A stretch of 64,000 bases of DNA from Bacteroidota bacterium (GTDB lineage Bacteria; Bacteroidota; Ignavibacteria; Kapaibacteriales; HRBIN21): positions 19,899 through 83,898 of the forward strand of contig JAUQPR010000005.1 of NCBI GenBank assembly GCA_030550275.1. The letters are read 5' to 3'. Position 1 is the stretch's first letter. The number at the start of each line of letters is the position of its first letter. The notes beneath the pieces were generated by a model. That model had not been told where the DNA came from and did no database searches. It saw only the letters and a program-made list of their open reading frames with translations. Both the position numbers and the translations under genes were made by a program. This document shows positions 9,591-64,000 of the stretch, piece by piece.

Positions 9591-9602
9591 AGGTTGCTCA
9601 GC

Positions 9603-10327: not shown

Positions 10328-10443
10328 GAGCCGTCCTCCGACTACACCGACGCAGCATGCAAAGATAGGGCTTCCGGCTGAGCTTGGAAGGCGGCTCCAC
10401 CGCTCTGGTGGTCACAGGGTTTTTGCTAATTTTGCGTCCAGAT

Positions 10444-10516
10444 GGGCCGGTAGCTCAGTTGGGAGAGCGCCAGAATCGCACTCTGGAGGTCGGGAGTTCG
10501 AATCTCCTCCGGTCCA
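10444..10516 (+). tRNA. tRNA-Ala (anticodon CGC)
   Basis: Hand-folded cloverleaf: 7-bp acceptor with the G3:U70 Ala identity pair, D-stem GCTC/GAGC, anticodon stem CCAGA/TCTGG with loop ATCGCAC, and T-loop TTCGAAT. Confidence 0.85.
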
Positions 10517-10527
10517 CCCGTTGGCGT

Positions 10528-10600
10528 TGCCCCGTGGTGTAACTGGCAACACGCCTGACTCTGGATCAGGAGAGTCCAGGTTCGAGTCCTGGCGGGGCAG
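10528..10600 (+). tRNA. tRNA-Gln (anticodon CTG)
   Basis: Hand-folded: acceptor TGCCCCG/CGGGGCA with U1:A72, anticodon stem CCTGA/TCAGG with loop CTCTGGA, T-loop TTCGAGT, discriminator G. Confidence 0.8.
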
Positions 10601-10620
10601 CAACCCACTTCCCCGAAAGG

Positions 10621-16693: not shown

Positions 16694-16699
16694 GCCCAC

Positions 16700-44543: not shown

Positions 44544-45755
44544 ATGACCTCTGCCGTTGCCTCGCATCGCCGCGCCCTTGGCATCCTGTTCCTGGCGGTG
44601 TTAACCAATCTCATCGGCTTCGGCATCATCATCCCGCTGCTGCCCTTCTATGGGCAAGCCATGGGGGCGTCGGAGCTACAGATTGGGCTGCTGTTCGCCT
44701 CCTTCTCGGTTGCGCAGCTCCTGAGCTCGCCCGTGTGGGGGACGCTTTCGGACCGGTACGGGCGCAAACCCTTCCTGTTGCTGGGATTGCTGGGCGCGGC
44801 TGCCGGATTTGTCATCATGGCGCTGGCACCATCGCTGGAATGGCTCTTCATCGCCCGCCTTGTGGACGGCGCCTGCGGCGGGATGATCGCCACCGTGCGG
44901 GCATACCTGTCGGATGTGCTCGAGGAGCGGGAGCGCGCACGGGGATTTGGATTCATCGGGGCAGCCTTCGGCATCGGCTTCATCGCTGGTCCGGCATTGG
45001 GGTCGCTCCTGGTTCAGTGGAACCTGAAAGCCCCGGCATGGGCTGCTGCGGCGCTGAGTATGTTGGCAGCGGCAGTGGTGCTGCTGTGGCTGCCCGAACC
45101 CTCGCAGCATCGCCCACTCCAGCGGGGAATCCTCGTCCGGCGCTTTGCAGAGCTGTGGGGATTGCCCGCCCTGCGTCCGCTGCTACTGTTCGACCTGCTC
45201 TACTGGAGCTGCCAGGCGGTCTACCAGACCGGCTTTGCGCTCTTCCTGCATCGGCGCTTTGGCGCGAGCGAAGCACAGGTCGGCGCGCTGCTGGCAGTTG
45301 CCGGAGGCATCGGAGTGTTGACACAGCTTGTGCTGGTTGGACGCGTGACACGGCGTTGGGGCGAAACGCGCACCCTTGTGGTCGGCACACTCCTGGCAGC
45401 CCTCGGGTTGGGCGCGGCAGCGCTCGTTCCGACAATCCCGCTGTTTGTGCTCTGCCTGGTACCGGCGGCGGTCGGTGCCGGGCTTGCTTCCCCCGCCCTG
45501 CTGAGCCTGCTGAGCCGCACCACGCCACAACCTTTGCAGGGGAGCCTGCAGGGCGTGACGACCTCGCTGGAGAGCTTCGCCCGCATCGTCGGTCCCATCT
45601 GGGGCAACGGGCTGTTGCAGTTCGGGCTCTCACTGCCCTTCCTTTCTGCAGCTGCTGTGCTGCTTGGAGTAAGCGTTGCTGCTGGTCAGTACCACGAGCG
45701 CTATGCACTGGCTCCCGATGCAACCGCGCAGAGCCCTGCTGAGCGTGTGGGATAA
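44544..45755 (+). CDS. MFS transporter (Tet/TCR-like)
   Basis: 12 TM helices. MFS motif A GTLSDRYGRKP. Confidence 0.8.
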   Translation: MTSAVASHRRALGILFLAVLTNLIGFGIIIPLLPFYGQAMGASELQIGLLFASFSVAQLLSSPVWGTLSDRYGRKPFLLLGLLGAAAGFVIMALAPSLEWLFIARLVDGACGGMIATVRAYLSDVLEERERARGFGFIGAAFGIGFIAGPALGSLLVQWNLKAPAWAAAALSMLAAAVVLLWLPEPSQHRPLQRGILVRRFAELWGLPALRPLLLFDLLYWSCQAVYQTGFALFLHRRFGASEAQVGALLAVAGGIGVLTQLVLVGRVTRRWGETRTLVVGTLLAALGLGAAALVPTIPLFVLCLVPAAVGAGLASPALLSLLSRTTPQPLQGSLQGVTTSLESFARIVGPIWGNGLLQFGLSLPFLSAAAVLLGVSVAAGQYHERYALAPDATAQSPAERVG

Positions 45756-47241
45756 ACGCGGCATCACCGAGTTCGCTGCCGCCCTGGCGGAATTGGGCGT
45801 GGAACTCATCGCTTCGGAGGGCACCGGCGCCACCCTGCGTGCAGCGGGCATCCCCGTGCGCTCCCTCGGCGAACTTTTGGGAGCGACAGAGCTGCTCGAC
45901 GGACGGGTCAAGACGCTCCATCCCCTGCTGCATGCAGCAATCCTGGCGCGGCGTGACCGCCCGGAGCATCTGCAGCAGCTTGAGCAGCTTGGCATCGCTC
46001 CAATCGAGCTCGTCGTGGTGAACTTCTACCCCTTCCAGGCAATGGAGCGCTCCGGAGCTGCCCTGCCGGAGCTGCTGGAGTTCATCGACATCGGTGGTCC
46101 GGCGCTGGTGCGCGCTGCTGCCAAAAACTACCCATGGGTGGCGGTGGTGACCTCCCCGAGGCAGTACGAGGAGGTCATCGCCGAGCTGCGGCAGCACGGC
46201 TCCCTCTCGGAGGAGCTGCGCCGGCGCTACGCTGCCGAGGCGTTCGCCCTCACCGCCGCGTACGACGCTGCAATTGCCCGTGCGCTCAGCACCGAGCCCT
46301 TCCCACCGCAGTGGAGCGTGAGCCTGCCGCAGGTCCAGCGTCTGCGGTACGGAGAGAATCCCCACCAGCAGGGCTGCCTCTACGGTGATGCCTTCGGCGA
46401 ACTCTTCGAGCAGCTCCACGGCAAGGAGCTCTCGTACAACAACGTGCTCGACCTGGACGCGGCTGTTCGCCTAATCCGCGACTTCCCCGAGCCGACAGTT
46501 GCCATCCTCAAGCACACCACGCCCTGCGGGGTTGGCAGCGCTCCCGCGCTTGAGCACGCCTGGGAGAAAGCCCTTGCAACCGATCCAGTCTCGGCATTCG
46601 GCGGCATCGTTGTCACCAACAGAGCCGTCACGCGCGCGCTGGCGGAGCGGCTCTCGGAGCTCTTCCTGGAGATCATCGTTGCCCCGGAGTTTGCCGAGGA
46701 TGCCTTGGAGGTGCTGCAGCGCAAGCGGAATCTGCGTCTGCTGCGCTACCGTGCCGAGCTCCTGGCGCGGGCAGATGCGCTGGAGTTCCGCAGCATCCTG
46801 GGCGGAGCATTGGTGCAGAGCCCGGATATCGCCGTACTGCCTCCGGAGGGCTGGCAGGTGGTCACGCACCGGGCTCCAACGGAGCAGGAAGCCGCTGCAC
46901 TGGAGTTCGCCTGGCGCGTTGTCAAGCACGCAAAGTCGAACGCTGTGGTGTTTGCCGCGCCCGACCGCACCTTAGCCATCGGTTGCGGGCAGCCCTCGCG
47001 CGTGGATGCCGTGCGCGTTGCCATCCGCAAAGCCGCCGATGTGGGCATCTCGCTGGAGGGGTCGGTGATCGCCTCCGACGCCTTCTTCCCCTTTCCCGAT
47101 GCGCTCCAGGAAGCCATCCATGCCGGTATCACTGCTGCAGTCCAGCCCGGCGGCTCCGTGCGCGATGCCCTGGTCATCGAGGCTGCCAATGCCGCCGGCA
47201 TCGCCATGGTCTTCACCGGCATGCGCCACTTCCGGCATTGA
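45718..47241 (+). CDS. purH: Bifunctional AICAR transformylase / IMP cyclohydrolase
   Basis: MQPRRALLSVWDKRG… (MGS-like domain) followed by the AICARFT domain. About 507 aa. Confidence 0.9.
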   Translation: MQPRRALLSVWDKRGITEFAAALAELGVELIASEGTGATLRAAGIPVRSLGELLGATELLDGRVKTLHPLLHAAILARRDRPEHLQQLEQLGIAPIELVVVNFYPFQAMERSGAALPELLEFIDIGGPALVRAAAKNYPWVAVVTSPRQYEEVIAELRQHGSLSEELRRRYAAEAFALTAAYDAAIARALSTEPFPPQWSVSLPQVQRLRYGENPHQQGCLYGDAFGELFEQLHGKELSYNNVLDLDAAVRLIRDFPEPTVAILKHTTPCGVGSAPALEHAWEKALATDPVSAFGGIVVTNRAVTRALAERLSELFLEIIVAPEFAEDALEVLQRKRNLRLLRYRAELLARADALEFRSILGGALVQSPDIAVLPPEGWQVVTHRAPTEQEAAALEFAWRVVKHAKSNAVVFAAPDRTLAIGCGQPSRVDAVRVAIRKAADVGISLEGSVIASDAFFPFPDALQEAIHAGITAAVQPGGSVRDALVIEAANAAGIAMVFTGMRHFRH

Positions 47242-47559
47242 AGCAGGGCTCTTCGCCGCGCACTCCAAGCACACTCGGGCGTTTGCCCAAGCCCGACCCG
47301 AGGGGCAGATTGTGCAGCAGCTCGGCACACAGATCCCCTGGCACCACCACGCTCGCCTCACCCAGAGTCTGCCCGCCGAGCTGCAGGGAAGCTGCCGAGT
47401 ATTGAGGAGCTCAAAAGAGAACCCGCGCGATAGCACCCCAAGAGGCAGTACCGCCGCCCAAGGCTTGCCTGACATTCCCTGCGACGCGCGTAAATTAGCA
47501 CGCCGAGCGCTCGATGTGCTTTCTCTGCTATACTTGGGCGAAAGTGGAGAGGAGGTGCT

Positions 47560-47760
47560 ATGGCGAAGAGGGCGCAACCCACAACCTCGTCCGCCACGTT
47601 GGGCTTCGAATCCCAGCTCTGGGCTGCCGCCAATGCCCTGCGCGGTTCCATGGACGCGGCGGAGTACAAGCACGTCGTCCTGGGGCTCATCTTCCTGAAG
47701 TACATCTCCGACGCCTTCGAGGAGCATTACGGTTACTTTTTGGCAACCATGGAGGAATGA
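47560..47760 (+). pseudogene. Remnant of a type I R-M hsdM gene, HsdM_N first part, truncated after 66 codons
   Basis: …[36 protein letters not shown]… is the canonical start of the HsdM N-terminal domain. A stop follows at codon 67. Its last codons GGAGGAATGA supply the RBS for mrr. Confidence 0.6.
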
Positions 47761-47763
47761 AGC

Positions 47764-48663
47764 ATGCCCATTCCTGATTACCAATCGCTCATGTTGCCTC
47801 TCCTTGAGCTGTTGGAGGACGGCAAGGAACACCGGCTACGCGACGTGATATCTGCACTGGAGCAGCAGTTTGGCTTGACCGAGGAGGAGCGCAAAGCTCT
47901 CCTTCCAAGCGGGCAGCAGCCTATTTTTCATAACCGGGTAGGATGGGCAAGGACATACCTCAAGAATGCTGGGCTCTTGGAGGCACCGCAGCGAGGTTGG
48001 ATACGAATCAGCGGGCGAGGCTTGGAGGTACTTAAGCAAAAACCAGAGCGGATTGACGTGAATTTCCTTATGCAGTTTGAGGAGTTCAGGACCTTTCGAT
48101 TCTCGCGACAGCGGACGCCAGCCGAGTCCAATGCAGCAGATATCGAAACCCCCGAGGAGCTTCTGGCAAGCGCGTATGACATGCACAAGCGAAGCGTCCT
48201 ATCCGAGCTACTCGAACTGGTCAAGAAAGCCTCTCCTGAGTTCTTCGAGCGCCTGGTTGTAGAGCTGTTGGTCAAAATGGGGTACGGTGGTTCATACAAA
48301 GAAGCTGCGCAAGCTGTCGGCCGGAGCGGAGATGAAGGTGTAGACGGAGTTATTAAGGAAGACCGGCTCGGGCTCGATGTGATCTATCTCCAAGCAAAAC
48401 GCTGGGAAGGACCTGTTGGTAGACCTGAACTGCAAAAGTTCGCTGGAGCACTCCAGGGGCTCCGTGCCGGCAAAGGAGTATTCCTCACTACCTCAAGCTT
48501 CACAAGAGATGCGATCGACTATGCAGACCGACTCGGAATCAAAATCGTGCTCATTGACGGACAGCGCCTGGCTGAACTCATGTTCGAATACGGCGTCGGG
48601 GTATCGACTGTATCTACGTACGCTGTCAAAAAGGTCGACCATGACTTTTTCCTTGAAGAGTGA
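47764..48663 (+). CDS. mrr: Mrr restriction system protein (type IV, modification-dependent restriction)
   Basis: Mrr_N winged-helix N-terminus (…[10 protein letters not shown]…) and Mrr_cat PD-(D/E)xK C-terminus (…GDEGVDGV…IYLQAKRW…). Confidence 0.85.
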
Positions 48664-48667
48664 CGTC

Positions 48668-48929
48668 ATGTCCTCCAACCAGTCCGGCGTAGGCGAAATC
48701 CGCAAGAACATCATCGAAGCCGACCTGGTGGACCGCGCCATGGAGGCGGTGGAGCGGGACAACCCCTCCCTCAAGGGCGTCCTCCCCAAGGACTACGCGC
48801 GTCCGGCGCTCGACAAGACCCGTCTCGGCCAGCTCATAGACCTGATCAGCAACATCAAAGTCGGCGATGAGGAAAGCCGCTACAGCACCCTGCTCGACCC
48901 ATGCGAAGGTAGCACGCTGGAGGCAGACC

Positions 48930-48937
<8 letters not shown>
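48668..48937 (+). pseudogene. Second remnant of the old hsdM (HsdM_N second part), ends overlapping the start of the intact hsdM
   Basis: …[40 protein letters not shown]… corresponds to residues ~95–150 of HsdM proteins, alignable with the intact hsdM downstream. It diverges and stops at 48937. Confidence 0.5.
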
Positions 48938-50534
<1,597 letters not shown>

Positions 50535-50547
50535 AGGGCTGTAAGCG

Positions 50548-53500
50548 ATGAGTCCGCAAGTTTCATCTGGAGGAGCAGCCGCCGCCGGCGGTATGGATTT
50601 CCAGCACCGCGTTGCAGCCTGGGTAGCCGTCCACGTTCTCGCCGAAAAGGCTGCAACCCCTCCGTGGGACCTCCCCGCAGCCACGGTTCTTGAGTGGTTC
50701 CAATGTGAGACCGGCCATCCCGTTGACGATCTCCTCGTGAGAACCTCGGGCAGCGGGCTCGTTTTCTCTCAGGTCAAGCGCCGGCTCAGCCTCTCGTCGG
50801 ATGCAGCTTCGGATCTCGCATCCGCCCTCGATCAGTTTGTCCGCCAATTCATCACGTGTCACAACAAGAGCGGTGGATCACGCCCTACGGATCGCCCCCT
50901 TGATCCCGCAAGAGATCGGCTAGTGCTAATCACATCTTCCGTTAGCTCTGAGCCAATCCGGGGTCACTTCGCGACCGTCCTCCGTCGGGCACGAAACCTG
51001 ACCCCGGGTCAGGCCCTCGACGAAGCTGCCACCAACGACGAGGAGCGCAGGGCGTTTTCGGTAGTCCGGGAGCATATCCGCAGATCGTGGCAGGCGATCC
51101 TCAACGCCGAGCCGTCGGAGGCGGAGCTTCGCCAACTGCTTTCCCTGATCCGGATTCATGTTCTCGACGTTGAAGCCGAGGGGCCAAGCGAGCGGGAGGC
51201 GAAGCACGTGCTCCGCTCCGCAGTTCTGCGCGATCCCGACCAAGCGGACCAGGCATGGACCACACTAGTCACTTTGTGCGCGGGCTACGCGGCGCAGCGT
51301 TCCGGTGCCGATCGCGCTATTCTACAACGCGAACTCCTCAACGCGGGATGTGACCTCAAGGTCCCACGCAGTTACGAAGAAGACATTGAAAAACTTCGGA
51401 AGCATTCTTACCAGATTTTGTCTGCCCTCGGCCATCTTGCCCAAATCCGAGTAGGCTCAACGACGATCAGAATTCGTCGGGCGTGCACCGAAGCGCTGCG
51501 CCAGGCGGCTGAGGAGGGATCAATCCTCGTCACTGGTGAACCAGGTGCCGGGAAATCAGGGGCTCTCCACGACTTCGTCGAGGCGCTTCGTGACGGTGGC
51601 AGGGATTGTGTCCTCCTCGCCGTCGATCGGCTGGCCGCCCAGAGTCTCGGCCAGCTTCGGGAAGAGCTCGGCCTGGAGCACGAATTACCTGAAGTTTTTG
51701 AAAACTGGCCCGGCCTGCAACCGGCGTTCCTTGTAATCGACGCGCTGGATGCCGCTCGCGCGGATCCCGCGGCCGCAATGGTCCGTGATCTCATCCGCCA
51801 AGTGGTGGAAAGGAACGGGCGCTGGCGGGTGGTGGCCTCCATCCGCAAGTTTGATCTCCGTTATGGACCAGACATCCAGCAACTGTTTGCCGGAAATCCG
51901 CCGACGCAGTTTGCAGACGCTGAGTTCCAGCGGGTTCGACACCTGAATGTTCCGCGGTTTTCCGACGACGAACTCAGCCGGATTGGCTCGGAGTCTCCGC
52001 CGCTACAACGGCTCATTACCAACGCCCCTGCAGAACTCCGGGACCTCCTCCGCGTGCCGTTCAATCTCCGCTTGGTGGCGGAGCTACTCGGCGGAGGCGT
52101 CAGCCCGGACGAACTTACACCGGTAAAAACCCAGCTCGAGCTGCTGGATCGCTACTGGCGGCATCGCGTGGTGGGCTTCGATGGCCAAGGAGACGGGCGC
52201 GAGGCGATCTTGCGCGAGGTGTGCGAACGAATGGTGGAATCCCGTGTGCTCCGCGCAGACCGCGCCGCTGTCGCGCGCCCGGAGACGAGCGCCCTGCTCA
52301 ACGATCTCCTCAGTACGCAGGTCCTTATCGAGTGGCAGGCGTCACCGGACGCGCAACCTGACCGGTACACCCTCGCTTTCTCGCACCATGTTCTTTTCGA
52401 CTATGCGGTGGCGCGCCTTCTATTTCGAGGCGATCCCGAAAACGTCATGCACCGCCTTTCCGAAGACCCTGAGCTCGTGATATTCGTTCGCCCCAGTTTG
52501 GTTCTTCACTTCCGACACCTCTGGGACTCAAGTCCAGATCGTCACCCATTCTGGGAGTTGACCTTTCGGGTCATTGCTGACTCTGAGATTCCCGAAGTTG
52601 GGAAACTTATCGGCCCAGCTGTGGCTGCCGAGCTGGCTCGTTCCACTCGAGACCTAGAACCCGTCTGCGCAGCCCTTGAGCATGAGGATGAGGAAAAGCA
52701 CGGGCCTGCAGATGGCGCCATTCGCCACCTGGTCGGGGCTCTACTAGCTGGGATGGGGGGCAAGACTCTTGCAGGTCCCAATGCCGGTCCGTGGTGCGAA
52801 CTGCTGGAACGCGTCAGCCGGAGGCTCCGGCCATCGGTCGCTTACACCGTTCGAGCCCTGCTCGCAACCATGTGTGACCACCCTGAGAGCTTTACCCCCG
52901 AGCAGCGGACCGCCGCCGGACATACAGCGCGACGGCTTCTGGAGTTTGCATGGTCTCACGTGCCTAGGGATTCTTGGCTGGTGGTCCATGCGCTCCAGTG
53001 CGTTTGCCGAACGTTCGAGAGCGACCCCGCGGCATCTAGCCTGCTTATTCGCCGTTGTCTGGAGCCTGTGCACATTTCGGAGTTCGGCTTTGAAGAGATT
53101 CCTTGGCTGGCCCGAGAAGTTATACGGCTCATTAAGCTCGATCCGACATTAGTGGCGAGCATCTATTGCGCCGCCTTTGGCCACCAAGAGGAATCACAGG
53201 AGCCGACCCCCATCGGAGGCAGCCGCATCTTCCCTCTGGTTTCGAACCGCCGCCAGCACTATGAGAGCGCATTGTACCAGCTGGCCGAGTCCTTCCCCGC
53301 ATTCCTGGAAACGGCGCCAGAAGAGGCGACACGCACTCTTGTGCGTGTTCTGGAATCGTATGTCGGCCAAAGGCATTCTCAGCCCTTCCGTGAGACGGAG
53401 CAGGCGGTCTTCGACTTCCGTGATCAGCAAGCACGTCTGCTCGAAGATTACAGCTCCGTCTGGGACGAGGGAGATACCTACCGCGAAGAAGAGCCCATCA

Positions 53501-55536
53501 AGATGCTAGATGCCTTCCAGAACTTCCTGGAAGGACTAGCAACCGAAAAAGACAGCAAAAGCACGCTCCGTGCTTTGATCGGGATTTTCGTCTCGGAAAA
53601 CCAGCTCGCTGTTGCCTGGCGGCGGCTTCTTCTTGCGGGGGCCCGTTTTCCTGAAACCCTAGGCTTGGAGATATTGCCGCTCGCCTGGGCGGTTCCGATT
53701 CTTACGTGCCATGACACCACTGTGCCGGCTGGTGATTACCTCAAGGCAGTATTCCCGATCCTGCGAGGCAATCAGCGTCGGAAGATCGAACGGGCTATTT
53801 TGGGCATCCCTGACGCGATGCCGGCAGATCGGCGCGAGGAGGCCGAACAAGTTCGGGACCGGCTTCTCGGATGCCTGCCCCTCGCCGCCATCGTTACCGA
53901 CGAGGCGCACCAGAAATTAGCAGAGCTTCAAGCCCATAACGCTGTCCCACCTAATCAACCACCCGTGGGCTTAGAAGAGGAGTGGTTCGGCACTTACGGG
54001 GAGGAGGACTATCTCGAGGATCAAGGGGTCCCGGTCGAAGCCGAGGGAAACCGAAGGATCCGCGAGCTGGAGCGGCCGGTCAAGGAGTTCGCTGACCGGC
54101 ATCTCAACTCCACCCCTACCTTGGAAGAAGCCCACTCCGTGCTTCCGGCCCTGCGTGCCCTTTACGACGCTCTGGGTCGCGCCAACGCGGACGACGTACA
54201 CCCAAAGCAAAAGGACTATGCCTGGGGAATCCTCGCGCAGGGATGTGCGCGTATCGCAAGAGCCGAGGGTCTCTCCGGTGGCGAGGAGCCCGGCACGTTC
54301 ATAATGGCCGTTCTCCTCGAGGCGTGCCGCCACCATGAGCCGGTCCATGACCCTCAGTACGATGCCCAGTTCGACGAACATCCTTCATGGGGAAGCCCAG
54401 CAGCCAGGATCGACGCGGCCCAAGGGCTGATCATTCTGGCGAGTCACCAAGACTGCGCCACGCCATATGTCCTCAAAGCGATAGAAGCGCTAAGCGACGA
54501 CCCAGTTCCAGCTGTGCGCTATCAGATCGCTGCTCGCTTAGATGCCCTTTACCGGACGGCCCACGAGCTGATGTGGTCCATCATCGAGCGGCTGGCTCGT
54601 AAAGAGGCAAGCCGTGGAGTCCTTCAGGGACTGCTTGTCGGTCCCCTCAGCCGGCTAGTCGGCGCAGAACCCGATCGCGTGGCCAATGTTACGAAGGCCA
54701 TCTTCGAGCGGATCAGCGCCGGTCCTGGCGCGAACCGGGTCCGCGAGTTCGGCATGAGTATCCTCGCGGATCTCTACATCTGGCGCGATCATCCGCTATC
54801 CCGCGACGTAGTCCACGAGATCGTCTCGAATCCCGCCGGCTATCCCGCAGAGGCGGGTCACGTCTTGGGGCAACTTCGCAACCCCATCACCCACGGCCCA
54901 ACGGACCCCTCCGATCCCGAGGCTGACGCGATTCGCAGGCGGGCGCTGGAACTGCTCGAGCGTCTACTCCGCTCGTCACGAGACGGCCTCAAGGAGCTTG
55001 AAGGCCGTCATGCTGGGGTCGGCTTCGGCAAGTGGCCCCAGGCCGATCAGGAAACAGCTCAGTCGCTGATGCGTCTCATCGATGCCATCGGAAGGGAAGT
55101 CTATTTCGCCTCGGGAGCGTACGACGCCAAGAGCCAGGGGCAAGCACACGGCGTGCGTGAAGTCAGTCCTCAGTCCAAGCGGTTCTACCAGGAAGCCGGT
55201 GCGATCCTCGACGAGCTCACGGACGCACCCCTTCCCAGTGTCGCGCACCACCTGGTGGAGACCCTGGAGCACTTCATCCCCGTGGATCCCCGCGGTGTCT
55301 TCCTTCGCATCCACCGTGTGGTTTCAGCCGGGCAACAGGCAGGCTATCAGTACGAATCCATGGCCGCTGAGCTCATCGTCCGACTCGTCGAGCGCTACCT
55401 GGCTGAGTACCGGACGCTACTTCAGCAGGACGTCGCCTGTCGCAGGGCTCTGATCGAAGTACTGGATGTGTTCGTCAAGGCCGGCTGGCCGAGCGCGCGA
55501 AGGCTTGCGTATCGCCTGGAGGAGATTTTCCGGTAA
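50548..55536 (+). CDS. 1,662-aa NACHT/STAND-like P-loop NTPase with ~320-aa N-terminal domain and ~1,200-aa C-terminal helical-repeat region; candidate antiphage defense protein embedded in the type I R-M operon
   Basis: Single uninterrupted ORF, same strand, 13 nt after the hsdM stop and 15 nt before the hsdS start. Walker A ILVTGEPGAGKS (aa 326–337, nt ~51535) and NACHT-type Walker B FLVIDALDAAR (aa ~394–404). The long Leu/Ala/Arg-rich helical repeats include HEAT-like DDPVPAVRYQIAARLDAL. No obvious housekeeping homolog is recognisable. Confidence 0.6.
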   Translation: MSPQVSSGGAAAAGGMDFQHRVAAWVAVHVLAEKAATPPWDLPAATVLEWFQCETGHPVDDLLVRTSGSGLVFSQVKRRLSLSSDAASDLASALDQFVRQFITCHNKSGGSRPTDRPLDPARDRLVLITSSVSSEPIRGHFATVLRRARNLTPGQALDEAATNDEERRAFSVVREHIRRSWQAILNAEPSEAELRQLLSLIRIHVLDVEAEGPSEREAKHVLRSAVLRDPDQADQAWTTLVTLCAGYAAQRSGADRAILQRELLNAGCDLKVPRSYEEDIEKLRKHSYQILSALGHLAQIRVGSTTIRIRRACTEALRQAAEEGSILVTGEPGAGKSGALHDFVEALRDGGRDCVLLAVDRLAAQSLGQLREELGLEHELPEVFENWPGLQPAFLVIDALDAARADPAAAMVRDLIRQVVERNGRWRVVASIRKFDLRYGPDIQQLFAGNPPTQFADAEFQRVRHLNVPRFSDDELSRIGSESPPLQRLITNAPAELRDLLRVPFNLRLVAELLGGGVSPDELTPVKTQLELLDRYWRHRVVGFDGQGDGREAILREVCERMVESRVLRADRAAVARPETSALLNDLLSTQVLIEWQASPDAQPDRYTLAFSHHVLFDYAVARLLFRGDPENVMHRLSEDPELVIFVRPSLVLHFRHLWDSSPDRHPFWELTFRVIADSEIPEVGKLIGPAVAAELARSTRDLEPVCAALEHEDEEKHGPADGAIRHLVGALLAGMGGKTLAGPNAGPWCELLERVSRRLRPSVAYTVRALLATMCDHPESFTPEQRTAAGHTARRLLEFAWSHVPRDSWLVVHALQCVCRTFESDPAASSLLIRRCLEPVHISEFGFEEIPWLAREVIRLIKLDPTLVASIYCAAFGHQEESQEPTPIGGSRIFPLVSNRRQHYESALYQLAESFPAFLETAPEEATRTLVRVLESYVGQRHSQPFRETEQAVFDFRDQQARLLEDYSSVWDEGDTYREEEPIKMLDAFQNFLEGLATEKDSKSTLRALIGIFVSENQLAVAWRRLLLAGARFPETLGLEILPLAWAVPILTCHDTTVPAGDYLKAVFPILRGNQRRKIERAILGIPDAMPADRREEAEQVRDRLLGCLPLAAIVTDEAHQKLAELQAHNAVPPNQPPVGLEEEWFGTYGEEDYLEDQGVPVEAEGNRRIRELERPVKEFADRHLNSTPTLEEAHSVLPALRALYDALGRANADDVHPKQKDYAWGILAQGCARIARAEGLSGGEEPGTFIMAVLLEACRHHEPVHDPQYDAQFDEHPSWGSPAARIDAAQGLIILASHQDCATPYVLKAIEALSDDPVPAVRYQIAARLDALYRTAHELMWSIIERLARKEASRGVLQGLLVGPLSRLVGAEPDRVANVTKAIFERISAGPGANRVREFGMSILADLYIWRDHPLSRDVVHEIVSNPAGYPAEAGHVLGQLRNPITHGPTDPSDPEADAIRRRALELLERLLRSSRDGLKELEGRHAGVGFGKWPQADQETAQSLMRLIDAIGREVYFASGAYDAKSQGQAHGVREVSPQSKRFYQEAGAILDELTDAPLPSVAHHLVETLEHFIPVDPRGVFLRIHRVVSAGQQAGYQYESMAAELIVRLVERYLAEYRTLLQQDVACRRALIEVLDVFVKAGWPSARRLAYRLEEIFR

Positions 55537-55551
55537 TGGTAGCGAAGGTGC

Positions 55552-56775
<1,224 letters not shown>

Positions 56776-56780
56776 ACGCC

Positions 56781-59672
56781 ATGAGCATCGGCGCCGAACG
56801 GACCGCGGTGCAGAACCCATTCCTCCGCTACGCCGTGGAGGTGGGCTGGACCTACCTGCCTCCGGAGGAGGCGACGCGACTTCGCCGGGGGGAGACAGGC
56901 CTGGTGCTGCACGAGGTCCTCGTCCGCCAGCTTCAGGCATTGAACCCGGGCGTGGTGGACCACCAGCGGGCCGAGGACATCGCGGGGCGTCTGGTGCGCG
57001 TTCGTCCCAGCATCGAGGGGAATCTGGAGGCCTGGGAGTTCCTCAAGGGGTTGAAGACGGTCTTCATTCCGGAAGAGAGACGGGAGCGTAACGTCCGCCT
57101 GATAGACCCCGTACGTGTCGAGGCGAACTCGTTCCACGTGACGGACGAGCTTCCTTTTCAGAGCGGCACCCGGCGTATCCGGCTGGACCTTGTCTTCTTC
57201 GTGAATGGGATTCCGGTGATCGTGGTGGAGACGAAAGCTTCGAGGCACCTGGATGGAATGACCCGGGCACTCGAGCAGATCCGCCGTTATCACGCCGAAG
57301 GCCCCGAACTCATGGCGGTGGCGCAGCTCTACGCCCTCACGCACCTGGTTCAGTTCCTCTACGCCGCCACCTGGAGCCTTTCGCCCAAGGATCTCCTCAA
57401 CTGGAGGGACGAGCAGGCGGGTGACTTCGAGACTTTGGTGAAGACCTTCATCGCTCCGTCCCGCGTACTGCGGGTGCTCACGGAGTTCGTCCTGTTCGTG
57501 CGGCGCGATGGCGAGCTCTCCAAGGTGGTGCTGCGTCCCCACCAGATGCGGGCCGTTGAGCGCGTGCTCGCGCGAGCGCGGGACCCACACAAGCGTCGGG
57601 CACTTGTCTGGCACACCCAGGGCTCCGGGAAGACCTACACGATGATCACCGTCGCCCGGCGCCTGATTCAGGACCCGGCATTCGGAAACCCCACGGTCCT
57701 CATGCTCGTGGACCGCAACGAACTGGAGCAGCAGCTCTTCACCAACCTCGAGGCGGTTGGTCTCGGGCATGTCGAGGTGGCGCAGAGTAAGAGGCACCTT
57801 CAGGACCTCCTTCGCTCAGACCGTCGGGGGATCATCGTCTCCACCATCCACAAGTTCGAGGGGATCCCGGCCAACATCTGCACGCGCACGAACGTCTTCG
57901 TGCTGGTGGACGAAGCACACCGCTCCACGGGCGGCGATCTGGGCAACTACCTCATGGGTGCGCTACCTAATGCGACCTACATCGGCTTCACCGGTACCCC
58001 GATAGACCGAACCGCCTACGGCAAAGGGACGTTCAAGGTCTTCGGCGTGGACGACCCGCCTCACGGATATCTCGACCGCTACTCCATCCGCGAGTCCATC
58101 GCCGACGGTACCACGGTACCGCTGCACTATGCGCTCGCCCCCAACGAGCTCCTGGTGGACCGCGACACCCTCGACCGAGAATTCTTGGCTCTGACCGAAC
58201 TCGAGGGAGTGAGTGACATCGAGGACATCAACCGCGCCCTCGAACATGCGGTCACCCTTAGGAACATGCTCAAGTCGCCGGAGCGCATGCGGCGAGTCGC
58301 GGAGTTCGTGGCGCGCCATTTTCGGGAAAAGATCGAGCCGATGGGCTACAAGGCCTTCCTGGTCGCAGTCGACCGAGAGGCCTGTTGCCGCTACAAGGCT
58401 CTGTTGGACGAGTATCTCCCCCCGGACTACTCGAGGGTGGTGATCAGCCCGGCCGCCAACGACCCTCCCGAACTTCGCGCCTATCATCTGAGCGAGGACG
58501 AGGAGCGACGCATCCGCGAGGCCTTCCGCAAACCGGACGAGCTTCCGAAGATTCTCATCGTGACCGAAAAGCTCTTGACCGGGTTCGACGCGCCGATCCT
58601 CTACTGCATGTATCTGGACAAGCCCATGCGCGATCATGTGCTGCTGCAGGCGATCGCGCGAGTCAATCGGCCGTACGAGGACGAGACCGGTCGGCGCAAG
58701 CCCTCAGGCTTTGTCCTCGATTTCGTGGGCATCTTTGAAAACCTGGAGCGCGCCCTGGCCTTCGATTCTCAGGACATTCAGGGGGTAGTGGAGGGCCTGG
58801 ACGTCCTGAAGGAGCGGTTTCGGCAGCTTATGGAACAAGGGCGCCGCGACTACCTCGGCATCGTGGCAGGGCTTTCAGGTGACAAGGCGGTGGAAGCTGT
58901 CTTGGAGTACTTCCGTGACCCGGACGGGCGTGACAAGTTCTACCGTTACTTTCGAGAGCTCGAGGAAGTCTACGAGATCCTCTCGCCCGATGAATTCCTT
59001 CGACCGTTCCTCGATGACTACCGTGCCTTGAGCGAGATGTACCAGGTCCTGCGCTCCAGCTATGAGGCCCGCCCCATCGCCAGCCTGGATTTCCTCAAGA
59101 AGACCGCTCGCCTTGTCCAGGAGCACACACATGGGTCCATGGTTCGGGAGCCACCGGCGATTTACGGGATCGACGTAGAGACGCTCGGTCGCTTGGCGCA
59201 GGACGACGCGCCGGATGCGGTCAAAGTATTCAACTTGCTCAAGGCGATTCGGCAGATTGTAGAGGCGCAGGCTTCAGAGCAGCCCTATCTGATCTCCATT
59301 GGGGAGCGGGCGGAAGCCATTGTGCAGGCTTTTCAAGAGCGACAGATCACCACAGAGGAAACGCTCCGGCAGCTCGTGGACGGACCGGTGCAAGAATTGC
59401 AGGAAGCGGAGTCTGCCCGAGCCAGCATGGACCTCTCGGCAGAAGCCTTCACGATCTTCTGGCTGCTCAGCCGCGAAGGAGTTCAGGAAAGCGAGGCGGT
59501 TGCCCGTCAGATTGCAGACGTACTGGACCGATTCCCACACTGGCACACGAGCGAGCAGCACGAACGCGAGGTGAGGAGGGAAATCTACAAGGCGCTCCTG
59601 CCGACCGGCGTCGCGGACCCGGTGTCTGTTGCTGACCGGCTACTGCAGGTCCTCCGCGAGTCGCACCGATGA
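56781..59672 (+). CDS. hsdR: Type I restriction enzyme endonuclease/helicase subunit
   Basis: N-terminal nuclease (…VFFVNGIPVIVVETK…), SF2 helicase motifs (TQGSGKT; DEAH as VDEAHRS; …QAIARVNR…), C-terminal HsdR-type helical domain. 5 nt after hsdS. Confidence 0.9.
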   Translation: MSIGAERTAVQNPFLRYAVEVGWTYLPPEEATRLRRGETGLVLHEVLVRQLQALNPGVVDHQRAEDIAGRLVRVRPSIEGNLEAWEFLKGLKTVFIPEERRERNVRLIDPVRVEANSFHVTDELPFQSGTRRIRLDLVFFVNGIPVIVVETKASRHLDGMTRALEQIRRYHAEGPELMAVAQLYALTHLVQFLYAATWSLSPKDLLNWRDEQAGDFETLVKTFIAPSRVLRVLTEFVLFVRRDGELSKVVLRPHQMRAVERVLARARDPHKRRALVWHTQGSGKTYTMITVARRLIQDPAFGNPTVLMLVDRNELEQQLFTNLEAVGLGHVEVAQSKRHLQDLLRSDRRGIIVSTIHKFEGIPANICTRTNVFVLVDEAHRSTGGDLGNYLMGALPNATYIGFTGTPIDRTAYGKGTFKVFGVDDPPHGYLDRYSIRESIADGTTVPLHYALAPNELLVDRDTLDREFLALTELEGVSDIEDINRALEHAVTLRNMLKSPERMRRVAEFVARHFREKIEPMGYKAFLVAVDREACCRYKALLDEYLPPDYSRVVISPAANDPPELRAYHLSEDEERRIREAFRKPDELPKILIVTEKLLTGFDAPILYCMYLDKPMRDHVLLQAIARVNRPYEDETGRRKPSGFVLDFVGIFENLERALAFDSQDIQGVVEGLDVLKERFRQLMEQGRRDYLGIVAGLSGDKAVEAVLEYFRDPDGRDKFYRYFRELEEVYEILSPDEFLRPFLDDYRALSEMYQVLRSSYEARPIASLDFLKKTARLVQEHTHGSMVREPPAIYGIDVETLGRLAQDDAPDAVKVFNLLKAIRQIVEAQASEQPYLISIGERAEAIVQAFQERQITTEETLRQLVDGPVQELQEAESARASMDLSAEAFTIFWLLSREGVQESEAVARQIADVLDRFPHWHTSEQHEREVRREIYKALLPTGVADPVSVADRLLQVLRESHR

Positions 59673-60001
59673 AACCGATGAAGAAGCGAAAGGATCGACT
59701 CAGCTGGGCGCCCCTTGAAGACATCGTCCCGGTGGAGGTCTTCAAGGCGGAGGTGCGTGCCTGGGCCGAGCGCATTGGCGTCCAGCCGCGTGAGATTCAC
59801 GTTCGGCCGATGAAGCGAAAATGGGCGAGCTGCTCCTCGAACGGCCGCCTGACGTTCGATCTTGACCTTTTGCGCCAGCCCTCGAAGGTTCGGGCAGAGG
59901 TCATCATTCACGAGCTGCTCCATTTGAAGCTTCCGAACCATGGCCGCCTGTTCCGCGCCCTTTTGAAGGCCTACAAAGCACAGCAATTGGAGAGCGATTA
60001 G
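59669..60001 (+). CDS. DUF45 / M48-like (WLM/SprT-type) zinc metallopeptidase
   Basis: HExxH motif [10 protein letters not shown]. 110 aa. ATGA overlap with the hsdR stop. This family commonly follows hsdR genes. Confidence 0.7.
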
Positions 60002-60026
60002 GAAACATCCGGCGATCCGCGACGAC

Positions 60027-60749
60027 GTGGCCTTCTTCCAAGCGGTGCGAGCAGCCCTGACAAAGCGAGCACCGGCAGAGGAGCGGCCGGAGGAGGAGCT
60101 GGACCACGCCATCCGGCAGATCATCTCGCGAGCTCTCACGCCGGAAGGTGTCATCGACCTCTTCTCCGCCGCAGGCTTGAAGAAGCCGGACATCTCCATC
60201 CTCTCCGATGAGTTCCTGGCCGAGGTCCGGGGCATGCCGCAGAAGAACCTGGCCGTGGAGCTCCTGCGGAAACTCCTGGAGGGCGAGATCAAGGTGCGCC
60301 GTCGGAAGAACGTGGTGCAGGCGCGGTCGTTCGCGGAGATGCTGGAGCAGGCCATCCGCCGCTACCAGAACCGGGCGGTGGAGGCAGTGCAGGTCATCGA
60401 GGAGCTCATTGCCCTAGCCAAGGAGATGCGCGAGGCGGACCGGAGAGGCGAACAACTTGGCCTTTCCGAAGAAGAACTTGCTTTCTACGACGCCCTGGAA
60501 ACCAACGACAGCGCCGTAAAGGTCCTGGGCGAGCCGACCCTAAAGCGAATTGCGCGGGAGCTGGTGGAGACGGTGCGGCGGAACGTGACCATCGACTGGG
60601 CCGAACGGGAGAACGTGCGGGCGCACCTGCGGCGCCTCGTGAAGCGGGTGCTGCGGAAGTACGGCTACCCGCCCGACAAACAGGAGAAGGCCACCCAGAC
60701 CGTCATGGAGCAGGCAGAAGTGCTTTCTGTGGAGTGGGCAATGGCATGA
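60027..60749 (+). pseudogene. Orphan HsdR C-terminal domain (DUF3387-like) fragment, probable remnant of a displaced type I R-M system
   Basis: Matches the C-terminal helical domain of HsdR proteins (…[30 protein letters not shown]…[24 protein letters not shown]…[10 protein letters not shown]…). Opens with GTG, the first valid start after an in-frame TGA at 59964. The intact hsdR upstream already has its own C-terminal domain. Confidence 0.55.
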
Positions 60750-60760
60750 GAGGGGCCTCG

Positions 60761-61375
60761 AACAACGGCGTGCAGCGGACGGCGTCTCGCCGCCGCTGAA
60801 CTGGAGCGTTCGCTACCCCGGATACTTCCACGCAGTCAAAGGTACAGAACCAGATCGCGCCGGTGATCCATGTTGTCAAGCATTGCTTGCTGTTCTGCGC
60901 CTGAACTCAATCTGGCTGTACAGAATCGGCAGGACGGTAAAGCCTATCGGTCTCCTCCAGCTCGGAAGGAGACAGCTTGAAGAACCTTCTTCTTTCCCAC
61001 CTTACAGCTCGACTTCGCGTGGGGGAGCAAGCCTGCAAGTCACATCGGACTTTTGCTTGACAGTCGCAGAGCCGTTTTTTAAATTTGCAATGTAGGGGTG
61101 TGCAGTACATACTTGACCCCGACGGCAAGGGGGTTCAAAGCCCAGTCGACGCCTTGTGAACTAGAGGCGTGCCTGACGGCAGTCGGGACTACGCGCCGAA
61201 GTGTAGGTCACGTAGGCGGACTTCAGATGGCAACCAGATTACACAACAACCATCTGAGGAGCAAAGATGATGGAAACAAAGATGATGGAAACAAAAAGTT
61301 GACAACTCACCCGCCAGCGCATGTTATGCCGACAACTTGCGGTATAAGCGTGTTAGGTGGAAACCATACAATAGT
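60761..61375. repeat. Direct repeat copy 1 (~615 bp)
   Basis: About 97% identical to 62757..63375 with an offset of ~1,996–2,000 nt. Contains a tandem 15-mer AAAGATGATGGAAAC ×2 (61264..61293) followed by TTGACA (61299..61304). GC is lower than the flanking genome. Confidence 0.8.
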
Positions 61376-61954
61376 TCGGCGTCATCAATTGCTTCCAAGG
61401 GGTTCCCATGAGCTACGAATTGTCCCCTATGCTTCCCCCAAAGCGACCGTCTGTACTCGTCACGGTGCTCAGATGGGTTGCGGTGTTACCAGCTGCTATT
61501 GGTGCCTGGATAGTAGTTCAACTCTTAGTTATCTTGGCGAACGCAGCGGTTATACCTCGATGATCGGATTGGTGGTTGGAGTTAATCAATAGTGCCGCGT
61601 CCTCTTATGCTTTTGTGTACGCCGACGCAGCTACTGCCCCAAACACAACTTCATCGTAGGAATTGTCGTTGCTATTCTCTACGGCATATTCATGGTCGTC
61701 ATCATCACTGCGGGTTTCTTTATCGAAACGTCCGTCCCGCTCTGGCGGCTTGTACTCTCGGGCGTTATCAGTCTAGTCGCGACCATCGCTGCCGTCGTAA
61801 AATTGCGCGAAGAATACTGACGGGTGCGACGCCGAACAAATCGTTGGACGCGAGCGGCGGGAGCGCTTCTCGCAACTAGCTTGGTGCGGCGAAGGATGCT
61901 TTGATTCCCGCCGCCGCGTCAACTCAATCGTTAGGCGGCTATGAGGATCGCGCG

Positions 61955-62434
61955 ATGAACGTAAAGGACACGCTGGCCGGGCTCGGTGGCCTCCTCATCA
62001 TGGGAGCCTTCCTCGTCGTCGGCATCGCAATCGCCGGTGTCTTTATCTTCGGTGCGGCTTGGGCGAGTACGAAGCTACTGCCGTGGTTCTCCGTTCTGAC
62101 ACGGGTGGCCTTCGGCATCGTTGTCTTCATCCTTTTGCCCCTTGCGATTCCGAAAGCGACTCGCGGATTCTCAAGCGTGGCGCTTTTCGTCGCGTCCTAC
62201 GTGTTCGGCGCAACGCTCTGGATGAAGGGCCTCTTGTTGACGCTCGCAATCTGGGGCGTGGGCGCTGTCTTCATCGGTCTCTTCCTCGCGGGCGTCGGCG
62301 TAGTACCGATCGCGATGCTGGCGACCCTGATCAAGGGCATGTGGGGCCAGCTCGTCGAACTCGTGCTGCTCGCGATCATGACCTTCGGCAGCCGGATCGG
62401 CGCCATGGCCCTTGCGGAAAGCCTAGAAGGCTGA
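61955..62434 (+). CDS. Hypothetical polytopic membrane protein
   Basis: ATG at 61955 is preceded by GAGGA. 4–5 TM helices (…LLIMGAFLVVGIAIAGVFIFGAAW…). Lies between the two direct repeats. Confidence 0.4.
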   Translation: MNVKDTLAGLGGLLIMGAFLVVGIAIAGVFIFGAAWASTKLLPWFSVLTRVAFGIVVFILLPLAIPKATRGFSSVALFVASYVFGATLWMKGLLLTLAIWGVGAVFIGLFLAGVGVVPIAMLATLIKGMWGQLVELVLLAIMTFGSRIGAMALAESLEG

Positions 62435-62437
62435 GGC

Positions 62438-62758
62438 ATGCGGCGAATCTGGGTTCCACAACTCCTTGCCAGCTTGATGCTGCTCTGGGCCCTCAACCCG
62501 GAGAACCCGTATGGGTACTACATTCTGCTTCGCTGGGTCTGCTGCGGCGTCTTCGCCTACCTGGCTTTCAAGGCACTTGATCAGGGGCATCAGGGCTGGG
62601 TCTGGGTTCTGGGAATCACGGCCGCCGTGTACAACCCGATCTTTAGAGTGCACCTCACGAGGGAGATCTGGTCTGTTGTCAATGTCGTCACGATAGGAAT
62701 CGCGGTGGCGTCAGTCTTCGCCATCAAGTTCAAGGACGAGAAGCACGACACCGCCTAA
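62438..62758 (+). CDS. Hypothetical small membrane protein
   Basis: 106 aa with 3 TM helices. Starts 4 nt after the upstream gene, so probably co-transcribed. Confidence 0.4.
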   Translation: MRRIWVPQLLASLMLLWALNPENPYGYYILLRWVCCGVFAYLAFKALDQGHQGWVWVLGITAAVYNPIFRVHLTREIWSVVNVVTIGIAVASVFAIKFKDEKHDTA

Positions 62759-63375
62759 CAACCGGTTGCAGCGGACGGCGTCTCGCCGCCACTGAGCTGG
62801 AGCGTTCGCTACCCCGGATACTTCCACGCAGTCAAAGGTACAGAACCAGATCGCGCCGGTGATCCATGTTGTCAAGCATTGCTTGCTGTTCTGCGCCTGA
62901 ACTCAATCTGGCTGTACAGAATCGGCAGGACGGTAAAGCCTATCGGTCTCCTCCAGCTCGGAAGGAGACAGCTTGAAGAACCTTCTTCTTTCCCACCTTA
63001 CAGCTCGACTTCGCGTGGGGGAGCAAGCCTGCAAGTCACATCGGACTTTTGCTTGACAGTCGCAGAGCCGTTTTTTAAATTTGCAATGTAGGGGTGTGCG
63101 GTACATACTTGACCCCGACGGCAAGGGTGTTCAAAGTCCAATCGCCGCCTGGTCAACTAAGCGCCTGCCTGACGGCAGTCGGGCCTACGCGCCGAAGTGT
63201 AGGTCACGTAGGCGGACTTTAGATGGCAACCAGATTACATAACAACCATCTGACTGAAGAGCAAAGATGATGGAAACAAAGATGATGGAAACAAAAAGTT
63301 GACAACTCACCCGCCAGCGCATGTTATGCCGGCGGAAAGCGGCAGAGGCGCGTTAGGTGGAAACCAGATAGACTA
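62757..63375. repeat. Direct repeat copy 2 (~619 bp)
   Basis: See copy 1. It has the same internal 15-mer tandem (63264..63293) and TTGACA. Copy 2 carries a 4-nt insertion (…CTGACTGAAGAGC vs CTGAGGAGC) and a few substitutions. Confidence 0.8.
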
Positions 63376-63410
63376 TAGTTATGCGCCGTAGCCACAAGTC
63401 CGAATCGGCG

Positions 63411-64000
63411 ATGGTCATAGTTCTTATGATGGAGAAAAGCGCTCGGCGAATTGTTCCTCTTCTCCTGATTCAGTTTCTCCTCGCCACTGAAACCAGAGCC
63501 CAATCTATCGCCGACATAGCAGAGCGCGTCGGGAAATCAGTAACGATGATCGTTACTTACGATGCGACCGGTTCGGTCATAGGACAAGGGAGCGGCGTGT
63601 TTATAAACAAAAACGGACTTGTGCTTACCAATGCCCATGTGCTTGAAGATGCATACTCCGCCGAAGTTATCTCCGACCTTGGAACTTTTGACAGAATCAC
63701 GATTGTCTTTCGTGACCCAACGCGTGATCTAGCCTTGATTCAACTGAAAACTAATCAAGCCAGTCCGATAAGTTTTGCCAGCGATCCTAACTTCAGGCCG
63801 GGGGATCGAGTTGTCGCAATCGGCAACCCATTAGGTCTTGAGAAAACCGTGTCCGATGGTTTGATAAGCGGCATCCGTTTGACAAATGATGGAGTCGAAC
63901 TCATTCAAACTACCGTCCCAATTTCGCCGGGCAGTAGTGAGGGAGTTCTGCTAAACACATCGGGCGAACTAATCGGAATAACCTCCTCCACGCTTAAAGC
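63411..64000 (+). CDS. Trypsin-like (S1 family) serine protease, 3' end outside window
   Basis: Hand-translated as MVIVLMMEKSARRIVPLLLIQFLLATETRAQ… (signal peptide), His motif LTNAHVL, Asp motif TRDLALIQL, Ser motif PGSSEGVL. GC ~45%, far below the window average. Confidence 0.65.
   Translation, partial: MVIVLMMEKSARRIVPLLLIQFLLATETRAQSIADIAERVGKSVTMIVTYDATGSVIGQGSGVFINKNGLVLTNAHVLEDAYSAEVISDLGTFDRITIVFRDPTRDLALIQLKTNQASPISFASDPNFRPGDRVVAIGNPLGLEKTVSDGLISGIRLTNDGVELIQTTVPISPGSSEGVLLNTSGELIGITSSTLK

Follow-up and report, generated by a model that had tools for sequence, protein, structure and literature searches.

Remnants of a displaced type I restriction-modification operon flank a type I system of a different family downstream of purH in a Bacteroidota bacterium

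We analysed a 64,000-nt stretch of the genome of a Bacteroidota bacterium (GenBank assembly GCA_030550275.1, contig JAUQPR010000005.1, positions 19,899 to 83,898 of the forward strand; hereafter the window), in which a type I restriction-modification (R-M) system downstream of purH lies between fragments of additional hsdM and hsdR genes. The fragments are stubs of a different type I family than the intact genes they enclose, in agreement with the original prediction, which proposed that an older type I operon was displaced here by replacement of its interior. We consider it probable that this region is a layered defence locus, in which the replacement was followed by spread of the new cassette by way of the stubs and by later imports of mrr and of a gene for the phage-defence candidate PDC-M54A.

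The open reading frame (ORF) f1 (47560-47760, + strand, 66 aa) had been described as a piece of an HsdM N-terminal domain, and it does match positions 2-41 of Pfam HsdM_N with an E-value (E) of 8.9e-14. The HsdM homology stops at 47726, and the ORF extends past this point to 47760 in donor-derived sequence. The stub proper (47560-47726, +), which corresponds to codons 1 to about 55 of an old-family hsdM, is 95% identical to the syntenic relative L109 and 82% identical at the nucleotide level to the hsdM of a second locus, L105 (of the tblastx comparison with L105, the blastn part alone was used). A further piece of the old gene, codons from about 107 to 154 at the end of the HsdM_N domain, occupies 48734-48883 (+). 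By Pfam alone this piece matches HsdM_N positions 88-135 with an E of 0.03; its DNA is about 97% identical to an unbroken stub in L109, with two amino-acid changes, and 79% identical to the L105 hsdM, and its translation ends '...VGDEESR'. It lies within ORF f2 (+, given as 48668-48937 in the original prediction), whose first 22-23 codons (48667-48733, 'MSSNQSG...') match instead the C-terminal half of old-family HsdM, with 87% nucleotide identity to L105, and run on continuously from mrr in other genomes. Judged from these alignments, that segment came in together with mrr and should not be read as N-terminal domain. The end of f2 (48884-48937) is not derived from HsdM and holds a GGAGG that serves the new hsdM as ribosome-binding site. 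The claim of two colinear HsdM N-terminal pieces thus stands for f1 and for 48734-48883 and fails for the 23 codons with which f2 begins. Only codons 1-55 and 107-154 of the old hsdM survive, and no N6_Mtase domain.

At the right edge, DNA homology to an old-family hsdR begins at 60012 ('GCGATCCGCGAC', AIRDD), 10 nt past the TAG of the ygjP gene that ends the cassette, and continues to 60749 (+), which represents roughly the last 245 codons (T1RH-like_C). The start of homology corresponds to aa 174 of P0043 and aa 182 of the L104 reference. As predicted, a stand-alone HsdR C-terminal DUF3387 fragment without an ATG follows hsdR and its DUF45 partner: ORF f3 (60027-60749, +) opens at a GTG and runs uninterrupted for 240 codons to the native stop. 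It covers positions 94-327 of the 329 of T1RH-like_C/DUF3387 (Pfam, E 5e-106) and the final 236 positions of REase_I, the PADLOC model for type I HsdR, and lacks nuclease and motor parts. A search of solved structures with f3 gave no match. In its 120 best database matches, f3 is 79-97% identical to HsdR C-termini of another family from many phyla, and alignment with the intact HsdR of the window found no significant similarity.

Between these stubs stands a compact gene array. From purH (45703-47241, +) onwards, the genes at 45.7-60.8 kb are all on the + strand with intergenic gaps of at most 25 nt, and the G+C content changes from about 66% around purH to 51-63% across the hsd block. The left junction segment of the incoming cassette (48884-48929, +) carries the GGAGG at 48919-48923, 6 nt ahead of the hsdM ATG, and the f2 stop overlaps the hsdM start (ATGCTTGA). 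The intact new-family hsdM (48930-50534, +) encodes HsdM_N (E 2e-21) and N6_Mtase (E 1e-93) and matches PADLOC MTase_I with an E of 9e-249. The hsdS gene (55555-56775, +) has two target-recognition domains (TRDs), matched by Methylase_S in two stretches, and an internal conserved repeat at 55596-55649 and 56208-56261. The intact new-family hsdR (56781-59672, +, 963 aa) contains HSDR_N, SWI2_SNF2/ResIII and T1R_D3-like domains and scores 435 bits against TIGR00348 (E 3e-130, cut-off 284). The stop of hsdR is overlapped by the start of a short YgjP-like (DUF45) HExxH gene (59669-60001, +, 110 aa; Pfam YgjP-like E 5.6e-23). By its domain content the present cassette is predicted to be a complete type I R-M system, and dN/dS against L109, at 0.15 for hsdM and 0.13 for hsdR (the latter with 98.7% nucleotide identity), indicates purifying selection. 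The same operon is found without stubs in L202, a Thermodesulforhabdaceae assembly with an 80% identical HsdR; since that operon ends with a 102-aa YgjP orthologue, the short 110-aa form is normal for the cassette and its natural 3' terminus.

The junctions between old and new sequence are sharp. On the left, the old hsdM ends '...GAGGAAAGCCGC' at 48883, where the corresponding intact gene continues 'GCTAAGGACGTGCTCGG...'. The joins fall 46 nt ahead of the ATG of the new hsdM and 10 nt past the ygjP stop, and no hybrid genes were formed. Overall identity between the N-terminal domains of old and new HsdM is about 37% (local maxima 37-50%), and the HsdR C-termini are not alignable. With joins outside the new genes and two families so dissimilar, homologous crossover is not supported for the original joins. 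In this respect the original prediction, which had the cassette enter by homologous crossover at the hsdM 5' and hsdR 3' ends, is not borne out; recombination via these conserved ends is retained for later exchange within the remnants, but not for the ends of the incoming genes. A sequence found near both junctions, 'GATNAGGAAA', was examined as a target duplication and rejected, because it is old sequence at the left junction and new sequence at the right, which is the wrong geometry.

The same pair of junctions is found in another setting. In L200, a 629-kb contig that lacks purH and has other neighbouring genes, a 95-aa stub ORF is followed by hsdM, hsdS, hsdR (94% amino-acid identity), ygjP and a short HsdR C-terminal stub. 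Its stub ORF has its own hsdM start ('MAKRKNNLSTANVTGATVGYETQLWQMTDA') and an in-frame internal deletion, and then shares its tail with the window; around the left junction, at 48812-48961, the two sequences agree at 100% of positions, compared with 88% over hsdM as a whole. On the right, the stubs of L200 and L201 begin at the same HsdR codon as that of the window, and the right-junction position is identical in L109 too. On this side, identity to the window is 93-100% in ygjP and the first 90 or so nt of the stub, then 73-83% in the outer stub. Since the same junction pair occurs in L200 and L201 with a context-specific outer stub, the junctions arose once.

The scan with purH over species-representative genomes returned no close relative (best match 54% identical, with no usable synteny). 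The comparison at the purH locus that had been proposed was provided instead by L109 (JGI 3300066320, contig Ga0599197_27220, 17 kb), which encloses different content between the same stubs. Its order is purH, an unbroken 172-aa HsdM_N stub, hsdM (512 aa), hsdS (451 aa), hsdR (963 aa), ygjP (110 aa), an HsdR C-terminal stub, PEGA and glyoxalase genes, and a second HsdR C-terminal stub. Four blastn blocks pair L109 1-914 with window 46812-47726, 1051-2791 with 48722-50462, 2886-3563 with 55575-56252 and 3968-8530 with 56594-61144. Window 47727 to about 48721, with mrr and its flanks, stands in place of 136 nt of the L109 stub, and window 50463-55574, with a gene for a 1662-aa protein, is extra relative to L109. 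The two loci therefore differ in mrr, PDC-M54A, TRD2, the second stub and the PEGA and glyoxalase genes, and this differing content between the same flanks makes the locus a strain-variable defence hotspot similar to the enterobacterial immigration control region (ICR). Because L109 has the cassette without mrr or the 1662-aa gene, both are later than the core cassette. This reverses the proposal that mrr came earlier, which the unbroken L109 stub contradicts, and it removes the 1662-aa gene, which is also not in L200 or L201, from the single hsdM-NTPase-hsdS-hsdR-DUF45 unit that had been envisaged.

The mrr gene (47764-48663, +) encodes a full-length Mrr with a winged-helix Mrr_N (E 5e-33) and a PD-(D/E)xK nuclease domain, Mrr_cat (E 1.5e-36), and residues 1-297 match positions 1-315 of the 317 of PADLOC mREase_IV (E 1.7e-83). 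It is part of an imported cassette (47727-48733, +) made up of a 37-nt leader with GGAGGA, mrr, and 67 nt of hsdM (48667-48733). At least 10 metagenomic loci from the Mrr scan (L114-L119, L122, L124, L125, L129, L131) match the window from 47590 to 48733-48736, a span that takes in mrr, the 5' region of the old hsdM before it and the 'MSSNQSG...' piece after it. Past this span they continue with the remainder of an old-family hsdM C-terminus (hsdM'::mrr::'hsdM), so donors in which mrr replaces the middle of an old-family hsdM exist. In L128 (67% nucleotide identity), the nested mrr is still followed by the old hsdS and hsdR. The right join of the import coincides with a 9-nt microhomology, CTGGTGGAC, at window 48725-48733: the donor type reads ...GACCTGGTGGAC followed by TGCATGG and the recipient type ...GAGCTGGTGGAC followed by CGCGCC, with CTGGTGGAC common to both. 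On the left, the window is of the L109 type to 47726 and of the donor type thereafter, and the hsdM 5' sequence common to the window and the donor-type loci amounts to about 137 nt (47590-47726). The mrr gene accordingly entered from a donor in which it had displaced the middle of an old-family hsdM, and its import fits homology-facilitated illegitimate recombination.

As an observation in its own right, mrr nested in old-family hsdM in place of the methyltransferase core (at about 6001-6900 in the long donor-type loci) is found in cassettes down to 67% DNA identity with that of the window. One reading is that a methylation-dependent nuclease may be tolerated best if the same event inactivates the resident methyltransferase.

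The gene between hsdM and hsdS (50548-55536, +) encodes a 1662-aa P-loop protein that matches the PADLOC phage-defence candidate PDC-M54A (PDLC04700) with 2321 bits, residues 7-1662 aligning to model positions 2-1657, and has weak AAA matches and a P-loop at residues of about 314-415. A literature search found no paper naming PDC-M54. L202 has an SLFN/AlbA_2 ATPase gene at the same position. The gene sits in a tract that differs from L109: identity is 99-100% over 48872-49921 and drops to 70-85% over 49922-50462, so that the 3' third of hsdM (from 49922) is a divergent imported allele. In hsdS, TRD1 is 93-95% identical to that of L109 and TRD2 is unrelated, and hsdR and ygjP are back to 97-100%. 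This pattern is the footprint of within-family homologous exchange spanning the hsdM 3' end, the cargo and hsdS, an exchange that brought PDC-M54A and a new TRD after the core cassette.

The right stub has a mosaic history as well. Compared with its positional orthologue in L109, f3 differs at 70 of 735 nt (9.5%), distributed over codon positions as 12:4:54, whereas hsdR next to it has 38 differences in 2892 nt (1.3%); the divergence of f3 is about 7 times the baseline of the locus. The differences are patchy, and identity along the locus is mosaic. Since the divergence is about sevenfold above baseline and of the coding type, the variation in f3 was imported from other alleles and not accumulated in situ. 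The third-position bias departs from the neutral pattern expected of a pseudogene; we read it as imported variation, although it also leaves room for a functional f3, considered below. Together with the recurrence in L200, the exchange suggests that the remnants still serve as homology arms. In L109 (8551-10759), the PEGA-domain and glyoxalase genes are followed by the second HsdR C-terminal stub in direct orientation. Some patches of f3 resemble this second stub more than the first, which indicates gene conversion or deletion between tandem stubs.

Stubs of old-family hsdR are found in other genomes too. None of the 120 best database matches of f3 exceeds 417 aa, whereas nearly all of the 120 best matches of the new HsdR are full length; either old-family hsdR is often truncated in genomes or it is often broken in assemblies by its highly conserved 3' end. 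Some short homologues are artefacts in which the annotated protein begins at the first start codon that follows a frameshift or in-frame stop (L193, L197) or at the start of a contig (L198). The length classes of f3 homologues (240/241, 263-266 and 315/316 aa) were considered as fixed breakpoints and discarded as largely artefactual, leaving the boundary shared by L105, L110 and the second L109 stub. Real stubs occur in L105, where the stub adjoins GmrSD and an ATPase within a decayed locus of the old family, and in L110, alone between housekeeping genes. The HsdR stubs at L105:10001, L110:10067 and L109:9968 (the second stub) begin within about 6 nt of each other, some 265 codons from the C-terminus, and contig L198 starts (L198:1) at the same breakpoint; the flanks upstream of it are unrelated to each other. 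Such a recurrent start might mark a hotspot of recombination or the limit of a conserved module.

Two of the loci with old-family remnants have further features. A hot-spring contig, L104, carries two old-family hsdR copies (6901-10783 and 16172-18912), one split by an IS21-family istA/istB pair and the other truncated after a Transposase_mut gene, and each is followed by an opposite-strand Uma2-family gene. The decayed locus in L105 (1147-20798) comprises a split hsdM, Fic, hsdS, GmrSD, an AAA_14/DUF4143 ATPase and the HsdR C-terminal stub, and it adjoins a cas-family cluster with Cas_GSU0053, Cas_GSU0054 and a Cas3-like helicase. It is another case of defence genes collecting at such remnants.

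We weighed four other explanations for the arrangement. A chimeric metagenomic assembly that fused two type I loci has in its favour that many metagenome contigs break inside f1 or shortly past f3. These breaks are explained by a 610-nt repeat after f3 and by population polymorphism for the presence or absence of mrr, the latter being compatible with the many breaks inside f1. The arrangement of the window is spanned by more than 20 contigs of independent origin, with differing samples and assemblers (Logan, JGI, ENA and the NCBI metagenome-assembled genome contig L097; one JGI sample is labelled GxsBSedJan11), and the junctions are also spanned in the divergent relatives L109, L200 and L201. 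Since so many independent contigs cross the junctions, we consider a chimera excluded for practical purposes. It is also very improbable that the fragments are tandem duplicates or eroded copies of the present hsdM and hsdR, as might be supposed from their adjoining, in the same orientation, genes of the same functional class. Alignment bore out the predicted difference in sequence: f1 shares only 50% identity with the intact HsdM over 40 aa, and f3 bears no significant resemblance to the intact HsdR and matches the C-termini of HsdR proteins from another family, spread over many phyla, at 80-96% identity. Since the stubs belong to a different type I family than the intact genes, they are not local duplicates.

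The remaining two explanations concern what the stubs are and how they came about. The fragment f3, and possibly the HsdM N-terminal ORFs, might be kept as working stand-alone proteins, for example with DUF3387 binding the methyltransferase core and modulating assembly. The uninterrupted frame of f3 with its native stop, its third-codon-position bias, a dN/dS of 0.07 against the second L109 stub, the stand-alone pieces of about 263-289 aa in L105 and L110, and the lack of any full-length protein among its 120 best matches, when those of the new HsdR are almost all full length, all speak for such a role. However, the positional orthologue in L109 is frameshifted by a 1-nt insertion, the right stub in L200 is a 54-codon remnant, and members of the 90% cluster of f3 end at many truncation points (199-266 aa). 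For the GTG start of f3, the 10 nt that follow the ygjP stop offer no clear Shine-Dalgarno sequence, the window contains no old-family methyltransferase partner, and many of the short database matches are contig ends or post-frameshift starts. Import from functional alleles explains the signature of purifying selection equally well, and we regard a retained function of this kind as unlikely. Since methyltransferase, nuclease and motor parts are absent, the stubs are presumably non-functional as R-M subunits. The cassette could also be a site-specific mobile element with type I hsd genes as its target, or have been brought in by one, with the stubs as insertion scars at preferred sites. The near-identical start of the HsdR stubs in L105, L110 and the second copy of L109, together with the start of contig L198, points in this direction, as do the presence of mrr at similar hsdM positions in loci just 67% identical to the window (L128) and the insertion sequences next to or inside hsdR in L104. 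Gene tables with Pfam assignments, however, list no integrase, transposase or recombinase between purH and position 64000, and no inverted or direct repeats bound 47727-48733 or 48884-60011; the locus thus has no recombinase or transposase, terminal repeats or target-site duplication by which a site-specific element would be recognised. The HsdR junction of the window lies at aa 182 of the L104 reference compared with about aa 161 for the recurrent breakpoint, and the flanks upstream of the latter are unrelated. We therefore view a mobile element as an improbable source.

The favoured history of a layered defence locus would run as follows. A type I operon of a widespread and highly conserved family (hsdM to hsdR, with a DUF3387 HsdR C-terminus) once stood here, of which parts of the first 154 hsdM codons and about 245 codons from the end of hsdR are the only survivors. 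Its interior, as the anatomy shows, gave way to a compact hsdM-hsdS-hsdR-ygjP cassette of a different family, and the dissimilarity of old and new sequence suggests that this first join was most likely illegitimate. The junction pair, having arisen once, would then have moved among old-family loci by homologous recombination inside the stubs, with the inner 100-150 nt or so of each stub travelling with the cassette and the outer parts representing recipient alleles. As the comparison with L109 shows, the imports of mrr and of the hsdM 3'-PDC-M54A-hsdS tract came later, in this lineage.

Finally, the 5' stub would provide a promoter and a translated leader. A sigma-70-like promoter match, CTGACA-16-TAAATT (47469-47496, +), in the spacer between purH and the stub, is the only promoter-like match ahead of the array; the regional count of such matches is not above shuffle expectation, and the promoter type of this organism may differ from the consensus. 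The f1 stop lies 3 nt from the mrr ATG with GGAGGA within the last f1 codons, and all three variants observed keep the stub ORF open. From these features, the stub probably supplies promoter and leader for the array, with start/stop coupling to mrr and to hsdM.

Several points weigh against this history. Neither the donor nor the recipient state of the first replacement was recovered, and no relative with an intact old-family operon at purH was found; the illegitimate nature of the first join is deduced from lack of similarity and was not observed. The transfer between the purH and L200 contexts may run either way. The left mrr crossover lies at the very edge of the homology instead of inside it, and the true donor of mrr may differ from the loci found. 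The shared start of HsdR stubs is unexplained by the model and could point to a site-specific process. The promoter and coupling role has as its support consensus matches and the ORF phase of three variants, and the open frames of the stubs were rejected as proof of selection, since the chance of finding them is about 1 in 9.

Two non-coding features border the array. A direct repeat of about 610 nt (60761-61366 and 62757-63366; copies 94% identical and 2 kb apart) opens with a hairpin-like, G+C-rich stretch straight after a stop codon, that of f3 in one copy and that of a DUF6804 gene in the other, and each copy contains a strong promoter-like TTGACA-17-TAAATT (61057-61085 and 63053-63081). 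The repeat is also present behind the stub in L109 and ends most metagenome contigs here. An Rfam search of the whole window found only two distant tRNAs, and 60700-64000, including the repeat, matches no known RNA. In the spacer between purH and f1, the translation of about 47290-47420, 'QIVQQLGTQIPWHHHARLTQ...LPAELQG(KLPSIEELKRE)', has a weak DUF1016_N match (E 0.0024, under the Pfam cut-off) and may be a further decayed YhcG/DUF1016 gene. Members of this family are often found with type I R-M loci.

Elements of this locus have parallels in known systems. Accessory genes embedded in hsd operons include prrC of the E. coli prr locus and the rlo genes of Campylobacter jejuni hsd loci. Here too an unrelated defence gene lies between hsd genes (PDC-M54A, or the SLFN/AlbA_2 ATPase in L202), but in the window it encodes a 1662-aa P-loop PADLOC candidate and arrived with a divergent hsdM 3' end. 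Homology-facilitated illegitimate recombination has been described for naturally transformable bacteria; the mrr import resembles it in having one side in hsdM 5' homology and the other at a 9-nt microhomology, and differs from it in that the switch on the left coincides with the limit of the homology. The best parallel is the enterobacterial ICR, in which the content of hsd, mrr, mcrBC and GmrSD varies between conserved anchors (PMC12707154). Similarly, mrr, the accessory defence gene and the HsdS TRD differ here between related strains. The ICR anchors are the housekeeping genes yjiA/yjiN, however, whereas the flanks here are truncated ends of a displaced type I operon, and part of them moves with the cassette to other contexts (L200). 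A preprint on Xylella fastidiosa (10.1101/2022.09.01.506293) reports natural recombination among type I R-M systems, and the allelic exchange of hsd segments between strains is comparable to that seen here in the hsdM 3' third, hsdS and TRD2; exchange between remnants of a second, non-functional family is an additional feature here. We conclude that the locus is a clear example of known defence-locus turnover and not a new kind of system.

These results provide a stepwise history of an overwritten defence locus, with illegitimate replacement, recombination between remnants, one-sided import of mrr and allelic exchange. In annotation, all three fragments are best labelled as pseudogene remnants. 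More tentatively, and with doubt outweighing support, the old-family hsdM 5' and hsdR 3' ends could act as portable homology arms that let any cargo move by double crossover across lineages, with the 5' stub as leader and a hotspot at about 265 codons; the cargo on this same tentative footing would include the type I system, mrr, GmrSD with its ATPase and others. If such arms are general, "partial hsdM/hsdR" annotations would be markers for finding cargo of this kind, and widespread type I operons would be landing pads that move unrelated defence genes between distant bacteria.

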